DNA of 15,016 nt from Parcubacteria group bacterium (GCA_016186325.1 JACPLW010000013.1:1-15016), one strand, 5' to 3'; positions 190 through 7,609 are shown, numbered from the stretch's first letter. The notes: generated by a model from the letters alone, not told the origin. Made by a program: numbers and translations.

Positions 190-2625
190 TTAGCAAGTAC
201 TGTAGTCGCAACTGCTGCAGCGAGTACAGCCTTCTTGATAAATAATGGTATTCTGTTTGCACTTGGGACAACGATTACCGCTAAATCCAACGCTTTCTTC
301 GTGTTTTTGATCGAAAACGGATTTTTCTTCCGATTTCTCAATATCAGAAACAAAACCAAAGCGCACAAGATAAACATCAATTGCTTTGCTGATGCCGTCG
401 GCAAGTGAAGTAACTTTGTCTTTACCGAAGCCGGAAACTCGGCTTCCACCAATTCCTTTAAGCTGGTCCTTAAGCTGAACTAGCCTCTCCACGGCCGATT
501 TCGGAGAATCGAGCCGCAAAAATGACGAAGCCAGACGTCCGATTGCTTCGGCATCGGCTGCGGCATCGGTACCGGCTTTGGCAACATTGACAAAAAGTTC
601 AAATGGCTCGCTCGAGCCGGCCTCCGAATCAAAATTAATGGTGATGAAAGCAGCGCCATCAGGCGTATCCATTCTGATTGTTGAACCTAAAACCAATTTG
701 GGACGCGATTTGATGAAATCTCGCGATTTTTTACTTTCGTCTTTTTTCCCAACGCCAACAGATAAGACTCCGCCTTTGCAACCATCGCGAAAAACGGTAA
801 CACCAAGACAACCGAGTTCGTAAGCCATCCAATAAGCCTTCTCGATATCGGCCGGAGTGGCCGAATTCGGAAGATTGATGGTTTTAGAAACTCCATTATC
901 GGTGTTTTTCTGGAAAGCCGCCTGAATTCTTACGTGCCATTCTGGCGCAATTTCGTGAGTAGTGACAAAAACTTTTTTAACCTCTTCCGGAATTCCATCT
1001 AAATCGCCGATATGGCCTCGATTTTTCACCTCGTCCATAAGAGTCTGGGAATAAAAACCCCGTTCCTTGGCAACTTCAATAAATCTCTTAAATCCCGGCT
1101 GAATACGATGAAGAATTCTGTCTTCGAACCGATGGATTTCGGTTAATCCGAAATAAGGTTCAACTCCTCCGGAACATCCAGCAAGAATCCTAATCTCTCC
1201 AGTCGGAGCAATAGTTGTAACCGTGCAGTTCCTTATAGGTTCCTCGTCTTTATAAATGCTTTGATCCCAGAGAGGAAACGGTCCTCGTTTGACGGCTAAA
1301 CGTCTTGATTCGCGATGGCCCATTTTATTGACAAAAGCAGAAACTTCTTCCGCCATCCGACAAGCGTCATCAGACGCATATGGCACATCAAGATATGCCA
1401 GCATATCTGCCCAACCCATCACTCCAAGACCTATGCGCCGAATTTTATGAGCCAAATCAGTGATTTGAGGTAGTGGGTAAGGATTTAGCTCAATTACGTT
1501 GTCTAAAAAGTGAACCGCCAATTCGGTCGATTTTTTCAGGTTTTCCCAATCGACTAGATAACCGGAACCTTCTTTATAAACGAAATTTGCGAGATTAAGC
1601 GAACCAAGATTGCAAACGTCAAAATCAAACAGCGGCTGCTCTCCGCAGGGATTAGTGGCATTAATGGTCTTAAGAGCCGGAATCGGATTTGCCCGTCCGG
1701 CGTTAGTTCGATCAATAAACCACAATCCGGGATCGCCAGTTTCCCACGCCATATTCACAATCATTTCGAAAACTTCCCTAGCCTTAAGTCGTCCGACAAC
1801 TTTTCCATCTTGAGGATCAATCAAATCGTATTCGGTGTTTTCACGGACTGCCTTCATAAATACATCGGTTGCTGCGACAGAAATATTAAAGTTAGCAATC
1901 TGGGTCGCTAAAAGGGATTTTCTAAGCAGTTCTAATGCATAACTGCTGTACAGATATTCTTTGATTCCTTCATAAGTAGCTTTGTTTTTTCCAGTCAAAG
2001 TGCTTTTGCTTCGGATAAAATCCAAAATATCCGGATGGTGAACATTCATAACCGCCATATTGGCGCCTCGACGCATACCGCCCTGCTTAACATGTTCGGT
2101 AGAAGTATTGAATACTTCAAGGAAAGAAAGCGGGCCGGAAGAACGGCCGCGAGTCGACTTTACTAATGCGTTTTTCGGACGCAGTGAAGAAAACGAGAAT
2201 CCGGTTCCACCGCCAGATTTGTGGATTATCGCCTGCCACTTAATGGCGTCGTATATTTCATCCATGGAATCTTCAATCGGTAGAACAAAACACGCGGAAA
2301 ATTGTAGTCCATTACCGGTACCGGCGTTGTAAATCGTCGGAGCGTTAGGGAAGAATTTTCGTTCGGCCATAAGACTATAAAATTCCCTAGCTAAAGCGAT
2401 GATTTCTTCTTCAGAGTGGCCGAATTTCTTATCAGCCGAGGCGATGAAATAAGCGACTCGCCAACACATCCCTTCTACGGTTTCCGTAACTTGTCCGTCT
2501 TTGTCTCGCCTCAAATATCGTTCGTTGATAAGCTTTATAGCATCTTCAGTCCATTCACACTTAACCAAGTCGTCCGGCATAACCGCAATAGTAACCTTCT
2601 TTTGCTGTATCATTCTCGCCTCCAT
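190..2625 (-). CDS. nrdJ: Class II (adenosylcobalamin-dependent) ribonucleoside-diphosphate/triphosphate reductase, monomeric NrdJ type
   Basis: 811-aa ORF. The RNR active-site motif NPCGEQPL (radical Cys) is present. The C-terminal tail has a Cys cluster CPKC...CTRCSSC, typical of the thioredoxin-interacting/zinc tail of class II RNRs. The overall length fits NrdJ. The better start is probably M5 at 2613, because GGAGG lies 5 nt upstream of it (atGGAGGcgagaATG); the ORF-track start at 2625 has no SD. Confidence 0.88.
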   Translation of the reverse strand: MEARMIQQKKVTIAVMPDDLVKCEWTEDAIKLINERYLRRDKDGQVTETVEGMCWRVAYFIASADKKFGHSEEEIIALAREFYSLMAERKFFPNAPTIYNAGTGNGLQFSACFVLPIEDSMDEIYDAIKWQAIIHKSGGGTGFSFSSLRPKNALVKSTRGRSSGPLSFLEVFNTSTEHVKQGGMRRGANMAVMNVHHPDILDFIRSKSTLTGKNKATYEGIKEYLYSSYALELLRKSLLATQIANFNISVAATDVFMKAVRENTEYDLIDPQDGKVVGRLKAREVFEMIVNMAWETGDPGLWFIDRTNAGRANPIPALKTINATNPCGEQPLFDFDVCNLGSLNLANFVYKEGSGYLVDWENLKKSTELAVHFLDNVIELNPYPLPQITDLAHKIRRIGLGVMGWADMLAYLDVPYASDDACRMAEEVSAFVNKMGHRESRRLAVKRGPFPLWDQSIYKDEEPIRNCTVTTIAPTGEIRILAGCSGGVEPYFGLTEIHRFEDRILHRIQPGFKRFIEVAKERGFYSQTLMDEVKNRGHIGDLDGIPEEVKKVFVTTHEIAPEWHVRIQAAFQKNTDNGVSKTINLPNSATPADIEKAYWMAYELGCLGVTVFRDGCKGGVLSVGVGKKDESKKSRDFIKSRPKLVLGSTIRMDTPDGAAFITINFDSEAGSSEPFELFVNVAKAGTDAAADAEAIGRLASSFLRLDSPKSAVERLVQLKDQLKGIGGSRVSGFGKDKVTSLADGISKAIDVYLVRFGFVSDIEKSEEKSVFDQKHEESVGFSGNRCPKCKQNTIIYQEGCTRCSSCDYSTC

Positions 2626-3433: not shown

Positions 3434-5083
3434 CTATGTTTTCGGTATTGTCTCTTCCAAGATTTTTTTTAGTCCTTCTGTGTCAACGGTTTTTCTTTCC
3501 CGTTTTGTTTTCTGTAGCGGCGGCATAGTTCTTAAAGGGAAAGAAGATACCGATTTGTTTCCCTCTCTTCCTTTTTCACGCGTTTTTATAAAACAATCTT
3601 TGCAATAAACCGGTCTTTTGCCATCCGGCTTAAAGGGCAACACCGTTCCTTTTTTGCAGAGTTCACAAAATGCTTTAAAAGACTGTACTGTTCCCTGTCT
3701 AACAGGGTCGGACGATATTCCCACCCTTGGCGCGACAGATTTAAACTCCGGCTTTTTTAATTCCGGCAAAAAACCTGTTTCATCAGCTATTTTAACGCCG
3801 GATGCTATTCCTATTTGTTTTTCAACATCGGCAATAGGCGTTCCATACATTTTTCTTGAATATTCTATAATTTCATCTACATAGGAAATTTCCGGTTTAG
3901 GCGATGGAGCAAGAGTGATGGCCGAAAAAGGTCGCGAAGGAACGCCGTCAATCATCAGGCGCAAGTAAATATTATAATTGGGCAGGTTTAAAAGATCTTG
4001 CGCAATAATGTTCGGCCCAAATTGTTTTTCTTCTAAAAATTCCACATCCTCGGCGCCGGTTCTAAAAGCGACAAATGTTCCAACGTTGCCAAAAACCGCG
4101 TCTTTGACCGTAACGTTTTGATCATGAACCAGTTGACCTATATACTGGTTGGTAATAATAAGATTTAAATGATATTTGCGAGCTTCCGATAAAATAGCGG
4201 CAAACGCGTCGGTCACAAAGTTTTGAAATTCGTCAACATAAAGATAAAAGTCCTGGCGGTCTTCTTCCAAAATGTCAACCCGGCTCATAGCAGCCAGCTG
4301 CATTTTAGTTATAAGCATGCCGCCTAAAAGTTTTGAATTATCCTCGCCGATCCGACCCTTAGACAAGTTAATTATAATGATTTTTCTTTCATCCATTGCT
4401 TTTCTAAAATCAAAAGATGAATGCGGCTGGCCGATAATATTTCTAATGATGGTGGCCGAACTAAATTGGCCGATTTTATTTTGAATTGCGGCCGTTGCTT
4501 CCTGTTCATAGCGCTGCTGGTATTGAGCGTATTCTTGAGTCCAAAATGTTTTGATAATCGGGTCGGTAAGCTGATCAACCACCGATTTTCGAAAAATCTT
4601 ATCGGAAAACATTCTATTAACGCCCAAAAGCGTTGAGCCCGGAATTTCAAGAAGGGCTAAAATAGTGTTGTTCAATATATATTCCATTCTTGCCGACCAA
4701 ACATCCGGCCAGATTTTTTTAAAAACTCCCATAAGGCCCGAAGCGACAAGATGGCGCACTTCAGGTTTAACTTTTTCAATAGCGTTAAAAGCAATGGGAT
4801 ACTCCAAGTCCGCGGGATTGAAATAAATTACATCTTTGACTCTTTCTTTAGGAACATACCGCAACAGGCTTTCTGCCATGTCGCCGTGGGGATCAATAAA
4901 ACTAATGCCGTGACCGGTTAAAATATCGGAAATCATCATATTCATTAATAGGGTGGTTTTTCCGGTACCGGTTTGGCCGATGATATACATATGGCGCCGC
5001 CTGTCGTCGGTTTTAATACCAAATTTCCTTCGCTGATTGCGAAAGGTTGTTTCGGCAAAAAATGTTATTTCGCTGTTACTCAT
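3434..5083 (-). CDS. VirD4/TraG/TraD-family (type IV coupling-protein-like) P-loop NTPase with a C-terminal CxxC-x15-CxxC zinc ribbon and a basic tail
   Basis: Walker A GQTGTGKTT is followed by IDPHGD, the DPxGE-type motif seen after the P-loop in TraD/VirD4/TraG ATPases. Walker B is LYVDEF. The N-terminus FFAETTFRNQRRKFGIK is conserved in this family. The C-terminus adds CELCKK...YCKDCF and a K/R-rich tail. The likely start is M39 of the ORF-track protein (ATG at 5083). The 38 upstream codons overlap the palindrome and the stop of the upstream gene. Confidence 0.7.
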   Translation of the reverse strand: MSNSEITFFAETTFRNQRRKFGIKTDDRRRHMYIIGQTGTGKTTLLMNMMISDILTGHGISFIDPHGDMAESLLRYVPKERVKDVIYFNPADLEYPIAFNAIEKVKPEVRHLVASGLMGVFKKIWPDVWSARMEYILNNTILALLEIPGSTLLGVNRMFSDKIFRKSVVDQLTDPIIKTFWTQEYAQYQQRYEQEATAAIQNKIGQFSSATIIRNIIGQPHSSFDFRKAMDERKIIIINLSKGRIGEDNSKLLGGMLITKMQLAAMSRVDILEEDRQDFYLYVDEFQNFVTDAFAAILSEARKYHLNLIITNQYIGQLVHDQNVTVKDAVFGNVGTFVAFRTGAEDVEFLEEKQFGPNIIAQDLLNLPNYNIYLRLMIDGVPSRPFSAITLAPSPKPEISYVDEIIEYSRKMYGTPIADVEKQIGIASGVKIADETGFLPELKKPEFKSVAPRVGISSDPVRQGTVQSFKAFCELCKKGTVLPFKPDGKRPVYCKDCFIKTREKGREGNKSVSSFPLRTMPPLQKTKRERKTVDTEGLKKILEETIPKT

Positions 5084-5100
5084 AATAATGATTTGACTTA

Positions 5101-5149
5101 TATCGATATCGGATATCAATAGTACTATTGATATTCTCCGATATCGATA
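5101..5149. promoter_or_regulatory. 49-bp near-perfect palindrome between the membrane-protein gene stop and the ATPase gene start
   Basis: tatcgatatcggatatcaatagt | actattgatat(tct)ccgatatcgata. That is 23 matched bp on each arm with a 3-nt bulge, centred on AGTACT at 5121-5126. It carries nested ATCGAT and GATATC sub-palindromes. It is not followed by a T-run on either strand, so it is not a canonical intrinsic terminator. Confidence 0.6.
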
Positions 5150-5150
5150 T

Positions 5151-6395
5151 TTACCCGATTGGTAAAGATACGGGCGGTTCGGCTTTTTTAGAATCAACCC
5201 GCCTTAGAGTCGGCGCTTCAACAACAATCACCGGATAATGATAAATTGTGGCCAGTTCTTCAATATTTAAAATAAAATCTTTTTTAGGCCACTTCCTTTT
5301 TATATAACGGCTCATAAATCCGCTCTTTTTTAAATACTCGCGCCGTTTCTTAAAAGGCTGACCGGCTGAAGTGCCGGCTTCGCCGTTTGATTTAAAAGCG
5401 TTTAAATTGACAGTGTTAAACTGTTTAAAAGCGCCATTTACCGCCGCCATATTGGCGCGATTAAAAACATCGCTTCTGGCAATGTAAGCAAAACGAATAC
5501 CGGTTTTAAAGGCCAGCTTTGACATTTTATTCTCTATTGCTTCAACAACCGTCTTTTCTCCCGGAGAAAGATTTGCAGTACTTGTTTTTGATTCTTCTTT
5601 TTTTGCCGCCCCCCATTCTGGATAAACTGCCGGAGCTATCATAAGATTTCTTATAAATTCCTCAAGCCCGCCGAAAATCTTTGTAATCAAACTTTTCTTT
5701 TTTTCAACTTTTTTCCCGACAAGCTTATTTATCGCCTCGACACCTTTTTCTTTCCAGCTTTTTTCGTTGGTCGGTTTCATTAAATATTGGATAAAAATAT
5801 TTTCTCCTGATTTAAGTTTTGAAAGTATTTCAAGAAAAGGCGCCATTGGATCGACCTGCCTTTCTTCCTCCTTTTCTTCAAAAGACAAATAAGTTCTTAT
5901 GGGGTAAAAATCGTCTTTATCTAAAATAAGCTCAGCGCCGCTAATATCGTTGGTTTTAGACGGAACTTTATTGCCCATAGGGCCTGCGTAGTCTAAAACC
6001 TCCAAGATTTCAGCATCCGGATATTGAGCGTGAATTTGCGCTTCAACGAGATTCCTAAATTGTTCCGGAGTTCTTATGAAGAAATAAACCATGCCGTCTA
6101 TGCCTGCGATTTCAAAGCTAAACCATTCCTGGACCTTCCCTTTCCAATATTTGTCTAAAAATTTTATTCCGGTAAGAACTCCGTGAAGGCCGGCAAAAAC
6201 CTGCTCCATCGATTTCGGGGTTTTTTGAATATCTCTGGGAATTTTTATTTCAAGTAAAAGCCAGTTAATTTTTTTTAGGGCCCTACTTTTCAAATACTGG
6301 GTCCAAAGTTCAATAAAAATTGCGATTAAAAATACCGGCAGCCATAACCACCATAAACTCAAAAAAATGACCAGGATTGTATAAAGGATATTCAT
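5151..6395 (-). CDS. Conserved hypothetical protein with an N-terminal membrane anchor and a K/E-rich soluble domain; upstream partner of the VirD4-like ATPase
   Basis: 414-aa ORF. The first ~30 residues are hydrophobic (MNILYTILVIFLSLWWLWLPVFLIAIFIELW). The rest is charged, with LLEIKIPRD, YHYPV and GxF motifs but no enzyme motif I recognise. It lies in the same direction as the ATPase gene and 67 bp upstream of it. Confidence 0.75.
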   Translation of the reverse strand: MNILYTILVIFLSLWWLWLPVFLIAIFIELWTQYLKSRALKKINWLLLEIKIPRDIQKTPKSMEQVFAGLHGVLTGIKFLDKYWKGKVQEWFSFEIAGIDGMVYFFIRTPEQFRNLVEAQIHAQYPDAEILEVLDYAGPMGNKVPSKTNDISGAELILDKDDFYPIRTYLSFEEKEEERQVDPMAPFLEILSKLKSGENIFIQYLMKPTNEKSWKEKGVEAINKLVGKKVEKKKSLITKIFGGLEEFIRNLMIAPAVYPEWGAAKKEESKTSTANLSPGEKTVVEAIENKMSKLAFKTGIRFAYIARSDVFNRANMAAVNGAFKQFNTVNLNAFKSNGEAGTSAGQPFKKRREYLKKSGFMSRYIKRKWPKKDFILNIEELATIYHYPVIVVEAPTLRRVDSKKAEPPVSLPIG

Positions 6396-6493
6396 CCCGT
6401 TAGAAATTTATTATACTATAAAATATAGTTTTAAAACGACAATTACTATACATCTGTGAAATTGGCAAAATGTAAATATATTTCTAACGGGAT
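6394..6493. repeat. 14-bp inverted repeat (atcccgttagaaat / atttctaacgggat) flanking a ~72-bp AT-rich spacer
   Basis: The left arm 6394-6407 overlaps the ATG (6393-6395) of the membrane-protein gene. The right arm 6480-6493 lies ~25 nt past the stop of the sigma-r4 gene. The match is perfect over 14 bp. Confidence 0.4.
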
Positions 6494-6517: not shown

Positions 6518-7609
6518 TTAAACTAAGAAAAAGCGTCCGTCATCCGATTTTTTAAAGACTTTTTTATTTTGAAGATTGAGTAGAATCGTATTCTCTTTTA
6601 CAAAACGCTTCGATTGGATTGCTTTGACTATTTTTTCTTTAATTAAACCGTCTTTATAATTTTTTAAGAGTGAAATCAATACATCATTCACCGTGCCAGG
6701 CGTATAACCCCAGTCTGACAAAGCATATGTTCCTCTTCCCACCAAAACGAAGCGCGGGTCCTTAATCAGTTCGTTGTGCACGGTTTGAGGATGGGCCAAT
6801 TTGTCAGAAAAAACAGCTTTATTAATCAAATTTGCCACTTCACTAAAATGAAGCGGCTTCTTTTCTTTTTTAAAAACCAAATAGGCCTTATCTTTTACGC
6901 CTTTCGGAGAAATTTCCGGCGAGTGAATTAGACCCCACTGGCCGAAAGGATTTTGAGAAATCTTAGAAGAAAGTTCAAGGTAAGACATGAGGATCTTGTC
7001 ATTATTAGCCAGTCTTAGGCCCGCGTCTTTGTTTAAGGAGGTTAGGGTTTTAAATAGATAATTTCTTGAAACCGGGGTATTTTCTTGATCTAATTTTTTC
7101 TTCAAGGCTTCCAATGCGTTAATGGCATTATTATAACTAAGCGCATCGAGCGCCCAAGCGGCATTATATAATGGCGTTTCTTTAAAATACGAAAAACGTC
7201 CCTTGCCCAAAGCCAAAACAAAATTTATAACATTTTCTCGATTTCTATCTTGGAGAGAAAACAAATTAACCAGTTCTTTTAAGAGGTAATCCTTTCTTCT
7301 TACGCCGCCATATGCTTTAAGATGATTTGCGATAACATCAAACGCCGGCGCTAAAGATTCTAGAACGTTTTTATTGGCGAGCTGTTTTAAACCCAGAACT
7401 TCTATTTGTCTTATGCGCTCTCTGGTAACGCCTTGATTGTGGCCGATAGCCTCGAGAGTTTGGTAAGCTTCTGATTTAAGTCCGAAACGTTTTTCAATTA
7501 CCGCTTTCACACGGGGATTTAAAACCTTTATTATTTCATCCAAACTATTTTTTAAATTTGGGCTGCGCATGTTGTATTCTATTATATTAATAATCTTACA
7601 ATACGCCAA
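6518..7609 (-). CDS. DNA-binding protein with an N-terminal sigma-70 region-4 HTH and a C-terminal HARE-HTH-like motif; putative transcription factor
   Basis: Residues ~30-80 (VIEKRFGL...YQTLEAIGHNQGVTRERIRQIEVLGLKQL) closely match the sigma-70 region 4.2 consensus (RfGL...TLeEvG..fgvTRERIRQIE..AL.KL). Near the C-terminus, DPRFVLVGRGTYALSDWGY resembles the HARE-HTH signature (D-x-RF...G-x-W-x-L). An alternative start is M14 at 7570. Confidence 0.75.
   Translation of the reverse strand: MAYCKIINIIEYNMRSPNLKNSLDEIIKVLNPRVKAVIEKRFGLKSEAYQTLEAIGHNQGVTRERIRQIEVLGLKQLANKNVLESLAPAFDVIANHLKAYGGVRRKDYLLKELVNLFSLQDRNRENVINFVLALGKGRFSYFKETPLYNAAWALDALSYNNAINALEALKKKLDQENTPVSRNYLFKTLTSLNKDAGLRLANNDKILMSYLELSSKISQNPFGQWGLIHSPEISPKGVKDKAYLVFKKEKKPLHFSEVANLINKAVFSDKLAHPQTVHNELIKDPRFVLVGRGTYALSDWGYTPGTVNDVLISLLKNYKDGLIKEKIVKAIQSKRFVKENTILLNLQNKKVFKKSDDGRFFLV

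Follow-up and report, generated by a model that had tools for sequence, protein, structure and literature searches.

Type IV coupling proteins (T4CPs), such as VirD4/TrwB of R388, DotL and Cag-beta, typically combine a P-loop nucleotide-binding domain (NBD) carrying a helical insertion with an N-terminal transmembrane (TM) domain in the same chain, are linked to relaxase and type IV secretion system (T4SS) genes and are borne on plasmids or integrative and conjugative elements (ICEs). VirB4 is likewise one chain (TrwK of R388; VirB4 of Thermoanaerobacter pseudethanolicus), and in the R388 T4SS structures its N-terminal domain (NTD) joins the ATPase ring to VirB3 and to the tails of VirB8 at the membrane. 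Here we describe a gene pair that resembles both. It lies in a 15,016-bp contig of a Parcubacteria-group metagenome-assembled genome (MAG; GCA_016186325.1 JACPLW010000013.1:1-15016), the whole of which we call the window, and it encodes a soluble VirD4/TrwB-like ATPase and, directly upstream, a protein of the Pfam family DUF8128 with a predicted membrane anchor and a VirB4-NTD-like cytoplasmic domain. In our reading the pair is a two-part coupling-type ATPase with a VirB4-NTD-like partner, resembling a T4CP in its action and a split VirB4 in its construction. The explanation we favour, and in which we have middling confidence, is that this membrane-tethered machine serves a T4SS encoded elsewhere in the genome.

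Separate membrane partners of ATPases of this kind have been described in two plasmid systems. The coupling protein TraJ of pIP501 is TM-less, and its membrane anchoring by TraI has been proposed, as noted in a 2025 review (PMC12857230). TraI is a small two-TM protein, whereas DUF8128 has a VirB4-NTD-like domain, but both are separate membrane partners of a TM-less T4CP. On pGO1, trsD lies directly upstream of the VirB4-type gene trsE, and TrsD is remotely related to the VirB4 N-terminus (PMC12102498). TrsD therefore pairs with a VirB4, whereas DUF8128 pairs with a T4CP-like ATPase, and there is no detectable sequence similarity between DUF8128 and TrsD. In the Patescibacteria, Quiñonero-Coronel et al. 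(2025) reported a T4SS derived from the mating-pair formation (MPF) type FATA in most members, with VirB4 in 2417 of 3035 genomes and 5713 VirD4-type T4CP homologues in 2918 of the same 3035, of which 148 lie near virB4; relaxases are almost absent from the phylum (PMC12102498). Moreover, the essential T4SS cluster of S. epibionticum is without recognisable coupling and relaxase proteins (Wang et al., 2023). Orphan T4CP homologues in Patescibacteria have thus already been published, but their partner, its fold and the evidence from fusions apparently have not, as far as the searchable literature shows, and DUF8128 itself is not mentioned in that literature as far as we could find.

A first-pass annotation of the window had proposed a two-gene module at positions 3434-6395. 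Both open reading frames (ORFs) are present there, co-directional on the minus strand with the DUF8128 gene upstream and the ATPase gene downstream, and a single correction concerns the start of the ATPase. The DUF8128 (PF26449) gene (5151..6395) encodes 414 amino acids (aa), identical to NCBI HYW79_04110 of Parcubacteria group bacterium, which comprise an N-terminal membrane helix, the VirB4-NTD-like cytoplasmic domain and a disordered but conserved C-terminal tail. The ATPase ORF as first listed (3434..5197, 587 aa) begins at a TTG and overlaps the DUF8128 gene by 47 nt. However, every homologue aligns from the ATG at 5083 (MSNSEITFF...) and the closest relative is 523 aa long, and we therefore assign the true start to this ATG, which gives a predicted protein of 549 aa (3434..5083, minus strand). 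Both genes are real and not chance ORFs, since the DUF8128 family counts 2344 cluster representatives (E ≤ 1e-3, clusters at 50% identity) and the ATPase has at least 8000 matches.

By sequence, the ATPase is closest to the T4CPs. The Pfam models TrwB_AAD_bind (45.1 bits, cut-off 20.5) and TraG-D_C (24.7 bits, cut-off 22) match it and 50 of 50 homologues, T4SS-DNA_transf also exceeds its cut-off (23.9 bits against 20.1), and the only PDB entries recovered by phmmer are TrwB and DotL. The HerA-type model DUF87 scores lower (33.5 bits) and FtsK_SpoIIIE reaches 18 bits, which is under its cut-off; among models and structures alike, neither HerA nor FtsK gives the best match. The assignment as a coupling ATPase thus holds against the HerA/FtsK-like helicases, which the first-pass annotation had named as an example of a family that could displace it. 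We also considered the idea that the protein replaces FtsK and rejected it, FtsK being a poor match in both sequence and fold. Nor is the ATPase a VirB4. The VirB4-type signature AAA_10 is found in 0 of 50 homologues (E ≤ 0.01) but gives 399 bits with a true Bacillus VirB4, and hidden Markov model (HMM) alignment with hhalign to TrsE of pGO1 covers only a 44-residue P-loop region. The AlphaFold model of the ATPase (predicted local distance difference test, pLDDT, 75.8) consists of an ordered core (aa 1-430), a disordered linker, an ordered zinc ribbon and, beyond a basic tail, a short C-terminal helix. As in the T4CPs, the core holds an NBD of the TrwB/VirD4 type with an all-helical insertion, and its catalytic motifs are intact. 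Walker A (GQTGTGKT, aa 36-43, 4955..4978, minus strand) is found in 62 of 62 orthologues paired with DUF8128, and its residues G36, T38, G39, G41 and K42 are invariant in the 50 homologues. Walker B (LYVDEFQ, aa 281-287, 4223..4243, minus strand) has D284, E285, F286 and Q287 invariant and reads VDE[FA]Q in 60 of the 62 orthologues.

Three features set the ATPase apart from typical T4CPs, namely the missing TM domain, the lack of linked relaxase and T4SS genes and an extra zinc ribbon. A Kyte-Doolittle scan of the 549 residues finds no TM-like segment (maximum 1.29), and 60 of 62 orthologues are likewise without a hydrophobic segment. The protein is therefore soluble, as had been proposed, and the sole hydrophobic helix of the pair is supplied in trans by DUF8128. 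The zinc ribbon is of the Cys4 treble-clef type (Pfam match aa 468-501, 3581..3682, minus strand) with the pattern CELC-x17-CKDC at aa 473-497; it matches zf_Tbcl_2 (44.9 bits, cut-off 27) and TIGR04272 (44.2 bits, cut-off 36) and is ordered in the AF2 model, with a pLDDT of about 80-90. Zinc binding by this type of domain has been reported for small proteins of M. mazei (PMC12704099). Both the ribbon and the K/R-rich tail that follows it are present as first annotated, but the ribbon is optional, being found in 31 of the 62 distinct orthologues. The tails themselves (window 3434-3790) are of low complexity and cannot be aligned between orthologues, yet they end in one of two short motifs, either an amphipathic helix VDxxxL(R/K)xxLxxxL or a terminal (K)PGxx(I/V)KF. 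In the window protein the former is (K)TVDTEGLKKILEETI (aa 531-545, 3449..3493, minus strand); it forms a helix at 535-545 in the AF2 model and L538 and L542 are nearly invariant. At least 26 of the 62 orthologues have the broader pattern [VIL][DN]xxx[LV][RK]xx[LI] in their final 70 aa. TraD and DotL use their tails for partner binding, and both end motifs are likewise candidate docking peptides for a partner.

The partner protein had been described as belonging to no recognisable family. However, precomputed annotation places PF26449 on the identical protein and on all 120 homologues listed; local Pfam and NCBIfam copies returned no match for the 414-aa protein, the PF26449 model not being contained in that Pfam copy. 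Its only hydrophobic stretch is a Trp-rich N-terminal helix (aa 1-35, 6291..6395, minus strand; Kyte-Doolittle maximum 2.47), a predicted anchor of N-out/C-in orientation. It is followed by KSRALKK, and by the positive-inside rule these basic residues place the large domain in the cytoplasm. A hydrophobic N-terminal segment (Kyte-Doolittle ≥ 1.2) is found in 115 of 121 DUF8128 members, and in 86 of the 89 members with a single N-terminal segment at ≥ 1.6, K and R are richer after it than before. AlphaFold, given 60 diverse members, returned a confident model (pLDDT 85.9; predicted template modelling score, pTM, 0.83), and with this model as the query the top 13 Foldseek matches are all TrwK chains (E about 1e-5, prob 1.0). 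Thus, the cytoplasmic domain of DUF8128 is modelled with the fold of the VirB4 NTD. In profile comparisons with hhalign, DUF8128 gave a probability of 0.1% against the Bacillus (pBM69) VirB4, both as a single sequence and as a 7-sequence NTD profile, a weak negative given these shallow targets (the search for NTD profile sequences yielded 11 close Bacillus sequences), and 0.1% against the equally shallow TrsD of pGO1. The relationship between DUF8128 and VirB4 therefore holds at the level of the fold only. The C-terminal tail (...RRVDSKKAEPPVSLPIG, 5154..5225, minus strand) is conserved, with P408, L411 and P412 nearly invariant, but is modelled with low confidence (pLDDT 51-57).

To place the pair in its genomic context we scanned one genome per GTDB species and found at least 593 loci, 80 of which were used for the counts below. 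All 80 come from Patescibacteria-type MAGs of many candidate orders. The ATPase gene lies directly downstream of the DUF8128 gene on the same strand in 64 of the 73 loci with enough sequence, at a median gap of 45 nt, and a gene for a protein with sigma-70 region 4 and HARE-HTH domains (sigma-r4/HARE-HTH) lies directly upstream of DUF8128 in 70 of 75. SecF is encoded at most 3 kb upstream in 30 of 54 loci, and the conserved order is SecD-SecF-sigma-r4/HARE-HTH-DUF8128-ATPase. The first-pass annotation had suggested that the pair recurs in Patescibacteria and that the sigma-r4 gene may belong to the same cluster, and both suppositions are borne out, as regards gene order, by these counts. In the window the sigma-r4/HARE-HTH gene (6518..7570, minus strand) encodes 350 aa from the ATG at 7570 and scores 39 bits to Sigma70_r4 and 39.5 bits to HARE-HTH. 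The gene is found upstream of DUF8128 even in loci without the ATPase, and it has no counterpart beside the pair in the Bacillus and haloarchaeal clusters described below. Look-ups that started from the ATPase recovered the same block with the pair in six of six cases (about 4 distinct loci), among housekeeping genes (SecA, PGK, MnmA, AlaS and ribosomal proteins). At the median, the ATPase is 55% identical to its counterpart in the window, SecD 54%, SecF 45% and both DUF8128 and the sigma-r4/HARE-HTH protein 38%, so that the ATPase evolves as slowly as the core secretion protein SecD. An origin as a remnant of an integrated conjugative element was rejected, the housekeeping synteny being vertically conserved across classes. 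In one lineage (loci L003 and L091), two extra genes (L003 5762-8183; L091 4076-6463) encoding about 100-118 aa and about 624-630 aa stand between the sigma-r4/HARE-HTH gene and DUF8128; the larger one has a weak Peptidase_S55 match in L003. Separately, a 120-aa 23S_rRNA_IVP (four-helix-bundle) gene is found between DUF8128 and the ATPase in L003 and L004 (L003 9615-9977).

Outside the Patescibacteria the two proteins are found fused. The 824-position profile of the phage family phrog_5156 matches both window proteins colinearly, DUF8128 (aa 87-330) at positions 74-311 (E 6e-21) and the ATPase (aa 25-424) at positions 407-804 (E 2e-59). On plasmid pBM69 of Bacillus methanolicus, the 833-aa 'DUF87 domain-containing protein' WP_003349917 consists of a DUF8128-like N-terminus (hhalign 98.8%, E 1.3e-16, 268 columns, including the EELAxxxxxP motif) and an ATPase homologue that is 28.7% identical to the window ATPase (E 2e-34). 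It has neither a TM helix nor a zinc ribbon. The C-terminal tail of DUF8128 aligns to aa 300-314 of this fusion, just ahead of the ATPase domain, and corresponds to the inter-domain linker there. Directly downstream of the fusion gene come a Replic_Relax gene, conjugal-transfer genes and the genuine VirB4 (AAA_10, 399 bits), so that the fusion stands where a conjugation module has its coupling protein. We found no experimental characterisation of the pBM69 or phrog_5156 fused proteins in the literature. Relatives of the pBM69 fusion protein are also encoded by two jumbo Bacillus phages, as gp156 of phage G (JN638751 91735-93183; tblastn E 9e-12) and as ORF201 of 0305phi8-36 (tblastn E 2e-6), which fits phrog_5156 as a phage family of unknown function; a tblastn search with DUF8128 against a phage collection gave no match.

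Haloarchaeal plasmids show the same two-gene order as the window. There, the homologue of DUF8128 is annotated as a 'hypothetical protein' of 395-399 aa (hhalign 97.6%, E 2.6e-12, 297 columns), and on pHTS138 of Haloterrigena its gene (WP_204749458) is followed by one for a T4CP-like ATPase (WP_204749459) that is about 28% identical to the window ATPase and has about 500 extra C-terminal residues. The two genes are separate but overlap at their stop and start codons. In contrast to the window they lie inside a T4SS cluster, in the order T4SS pilin, VirB6/TrbL-like protein, TM-bearing 1099-aa VirB4-like ATPase, DUF8128 homologue and T4CP-like protein, and a primase-polymerase is also encoded in the cluster. 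The phrog_5156 fusion, the pBM69 fusion and the haloarchaeal adjacency together argue that DUF8128 and the ATPase form one functional unit. An alternative would be that the two genes are neighbours through conserved gene order alone and do not act jointly. This could be said to fit the conservation of the whole SecD-SecF-sigma-r4-DUF8128-ATPase block and the nine loci that have DUF8128 without the ATPase, but it leaves unexplained the domain fusions in the Bacillus plasmid proteins and in phrog_5156 and an adjacency with overlapping stop and start codons that is shared across domains of life, and we regard it as scarcely credible. TM segments are absent from both proteins in the Bacillus and haloarchaeal relatives, and DUF8128 is therefore more than an anchor. 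The earlier proposal that the membrane anchor of the ATPase has moved to the upstream protein is thus right as to where the helix now resides; a move is one possibility, and the helix may equally be a Patescibacterial addition.

A different affiliation of the ATPase is raised by its best single HMM score, which is to the PADLOC model mad8 (60 bits, E 6.5e-17). The ATPase could then be a NTPase of the HerA/DptH/MADS type acting in anti-phage or anti-plasmid defence, with DUF8128 as its effector or sensor. Similarity to DptH, as well as the relatives in phrog_5156 and in the two jumbo Bacillus phages, is in line with this, and so is one of the closest non-Patescibacterial ATPase homologues, which are found on a Sulfitobacter plasmid and on Bradyrhizobium p131_1. 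The Bradyrhizobium homologue (locus L086, 6059-8185, 708 aa) is flanked by CHAT and TPR genes, and its N-terminal 314 aa are not detectably DUF8128; the one from Sulfitobacter (locus L085, 6983-8170) is a 395-aa orphan beside transposases with 39% identity to the window ATPase. The context of these two homologues may be related to conflict systems. However, defence genes are patchy, island-borne and fast-evolving, the opposite of the phylum-wide spread, fixed housekeeping synteny and SecD-like conservation seen here. Moreover, the locus does not combine its mad8-like ATPase with other mad genes as MADS does, the genes next to it include neither dnd nor dpt genes and neither a nuclease nor a methyltransferase partner, and DUF8128 has no PADLOC match; of the neighbours, the vault-like protein has none either and the sigma-r4 gene has MzaA region 4 as its only match. 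We consider a role in defence very improbable.

The pair therefore combines features of two known systems. It differs from VirB4 in being made of two polypeptides, in having T4CP signatures in place of AAA_10 and in the absence of an adjacent VirB3, and from the T4CPs in that the ATPase is partnered with a VirB4-NTD-like protein and that the pair is chromosomal and vertically conserved in a housekeeping-like setting. We class it as a T4CP variant, because the ATPase has the sequence and fold of a T4CP, with the N-terminal VirB4 fold residing in DUF8128, and does not have a TM domain of its own, a linkage to relaxase or MPF genes in Patescibacteria or the VirB4 signature. Such linkage is seen for the Bacillus and haloarchaeal homologues.

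Several observations weigh against the reading that the pair serves a T4SS. HMM library scans detect no other T4SS or relaxase gene among the ORFs of the window, in agreement with the first-pass annotation, and T4SS, relaxase and pilin genes were not found within about 10 kb in the Patescibacterial loci examined either. A tblastn search of 1.26 Mb of Patescibacterial flanks with Bacillus and haloarchaeal VirB4, VirB6 and relaxase gave no match, although such a search is insensitive. In nine of the 73 loci, DUF8128 and the sigma-r4 gene are present, but the place of the ATPase downstream is taken by MltG-like, MnmA or AlaS genes. The likeness of DUF8128 to the VirB4 NTD is confined to the fold, and in view of the TM-less Bacillus and haloarchaeal relatives the role of its helix is one that we infer. 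Across the phylum, T4CP homologues occur in more genomes than VirB4 (2918 versus 2417; PMC12102498). Finally, in S. epibionticum ML1 a t4cp that may or may not be the orthologue of the window ATPase gene is non-essential whereas the T4SS genes are essential (PMC12102498).

Some of these points would be accommodated if the same two-part machine had been exapted and worked independently of a T4SS, as a membrane-tethered translocase or receptor for nucleic acid with a housekeeping task, such as dealing at the membrane with DNA or RNA taken in from the host, or transactions of chromosomal or plasmid DNA, in which the zinc ribbon and the basic tail would bind nucleic acid. Exaptation has been raised before, with T4CP homologues in 96% and VirB4 in 80% of genomes (PMC12102498), and a cultivated Patescibacterium takes up host RNA by a route that is unresolved (bioRxiv 10.64898/2026.06.21.733656). 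The housekeeping synteny (SecDF, sigma-r4/HARE-HTH, MnmA, AlaS and PGK) without T4SS genes nearby, a conservation of the ATPase equal to that of SecD, its zinc ribbon and basic tail, and a conserved neighbour of the DNA-binding type point the same way. On the other hand, half of the orthologues have no zinc ribbon, every non-Patescibacterial relative with an informative context sits in a conjugation-type cluster, and no alternative membrane pore is encoded beside the pair. As to chromosomal DNA, FtsK is apparently mentioned for Saccharibacteria (TM7x) in the literature, and if it is present a replacement in segregation is not needed. We therefore regard T4SS-independent exaptation as the main rival reading, possible but rather unlikely.

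Returning to the two-part coupling ATPase that serves a T4SS, its mode of action can be sketched as follows. The single N-terminal helix of DUF8128 would insert into the cytoplasmic membrane and thereby display the VirB4-NTD-like domain in the cytoplasm, where it would scaffold the ring of the VirD4-type ATPase at the cytoplasmic face of the membrane, as the VirB4 NTD does for VirB4. The soluble ATPase would dock on DUF8128, probably through the C-terminal tail of the latter and its own invariant N-terminal beta-hairpin, and would oligomerise, presumably into a hexamer like TrwB. ATP would drive the recruitment of substrate by the ATPase and its pushing toward a membrane conduit. Receptors for substrates or partners would be provided by the zinc ribbon, where present, together with the basic tail and the conserved C-terminal helix. 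As conduit, the most likely candidate is the chromosomal T4SS of monoderm type (MPF-FATA), which is encoded elsewhere and present in most Patescibacteria. A bolder version, which we think improbable, takes the complex of DUF8128 and ATPase to be a cytoplasmic motor and receptor that moves nucleic acid across the Patescibacterial membrane, for example by reeling in host RNA or DNA through a T4SS or pilus conduit.

Two features at the borders of the genes are specific to this genome, as judged by comparison with its closest relative (L090), whose proteins are 85-86% identical to those of the window. A 96-bp insertion (6396..6491) directly adjoins the start codon of DUF8128. Its ends are perfect 12-bp inverted repeats (CCCGTTAGAAAT), and it is flanked by a 6-bp direct duplication (ATTCAT on the plus strand, ATGAAT on the gene strand); the alignment with L090 shows a clean insertion that duplicated ATGAAT exactly at the start codon. 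A promoter-like TTGTCG-16-TATAGT lies within the element. The same pair of terminal repeats, at a spacing of 60-90 nt, occurs in at least 120 metagenome contigs, where the flanking 6-mers fit RTNNAY and behave like target-site duplications, agreeing at 4.2 of 6 positions within an element versus 2.9 of 6 in shuffled pairings. The internal sequences are heterogeneous, but GC hairpins are conserved in 30 of 125 copies, which form a subfamily of about 93 nt. The element looks like a member of an undescribed family of Patescibacteria-type genomes resembling miniature inverted-repeat transposable elements (MITEs) or REPINs. One copy encloses a tRNA-like sequence. The second feature is a near-perfect 51-bp palindrome (5100..5150) in the gap between DUF8128 and the ATPase, with arms of 14 nt (5100-5113/5137-5150) and 11 nt (5113-5123/5124-5134) that are 100% complementary and with no T-run after it. 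L090 has a gap of 20 nt without it. The palindrome could form an RNA hairpin with an influence on how the two genes are coupled, or it could be a further small repeat that was inserted.

The remaining ORFs of the window encode, besides the sigma-r4/HARE-HTH protein, SecF and SecD, a class II ribonucleotide reductase, EF-P, a major-vault-protein-like protein, an MPG glycosylase and a PD-(D/E)XK nuclease. The vault-like gene (10097-12607, minus strand) encodes 836 aa that match the Pfam models MVP_shoulder (93.7 bits) and Vault_3 (42.7 bits) and no NCBIfam, PADLOC or PHROG model; since L090 has MPG directly before SecD, the gene is an insertion in the window genome. The ribonucleotide reductase (190-2625, minus strand) has a Cys-rich zinc-ribbon-like tail of its own (CPKC...CTRCSSC). 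The nuclease (13701-14456, minus strand) is Cas4-like and has a C-terminal Cys cluster; the window contains no CRISPR array. Rfam and tRNA scans of the window gave no match, and its promoter and terminator predictions are not enriched over those in shuffled sequences.

For DUF8128, these results suggest a concrete, testable role as the membrane scaffold or adaptor of a coupling ATPase. Moreover, they describe a lineage of coupling proteins that has a VirB4-like NTD instead of a TM domain, a point of relevance to the divergence of VirB4 and VirD4. Patescibacteria account for much of bacterial diversity, their cultivated members are epibionts on host cells, and in one strain subjected to transposon sequencing (Tn-seq), S. 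epibionticum ML1, the T4SS is essential for growth on the host. Thousands of orphan VirD4 homologues have been recorded in the phylum without a partner (PMC12102498), and the pair supplies one. It thereby nominates specific genes for the question of what the Patescibacterial T4SS transports and how nucleic acid is acquired from the host. Should the complex turn out to be a motor for nucleic acid, this would explain why it is nearly universal and as conserved as SecD, why relaxases are absent, why there is a zinc ribbon with a basic tail and why its position beside the sigma-r4/HARE-HTH protein, which is of the DNA-binding type, is fixed, and the pair would be a core nutritional machine of the phylum and not a relic of conjugation.

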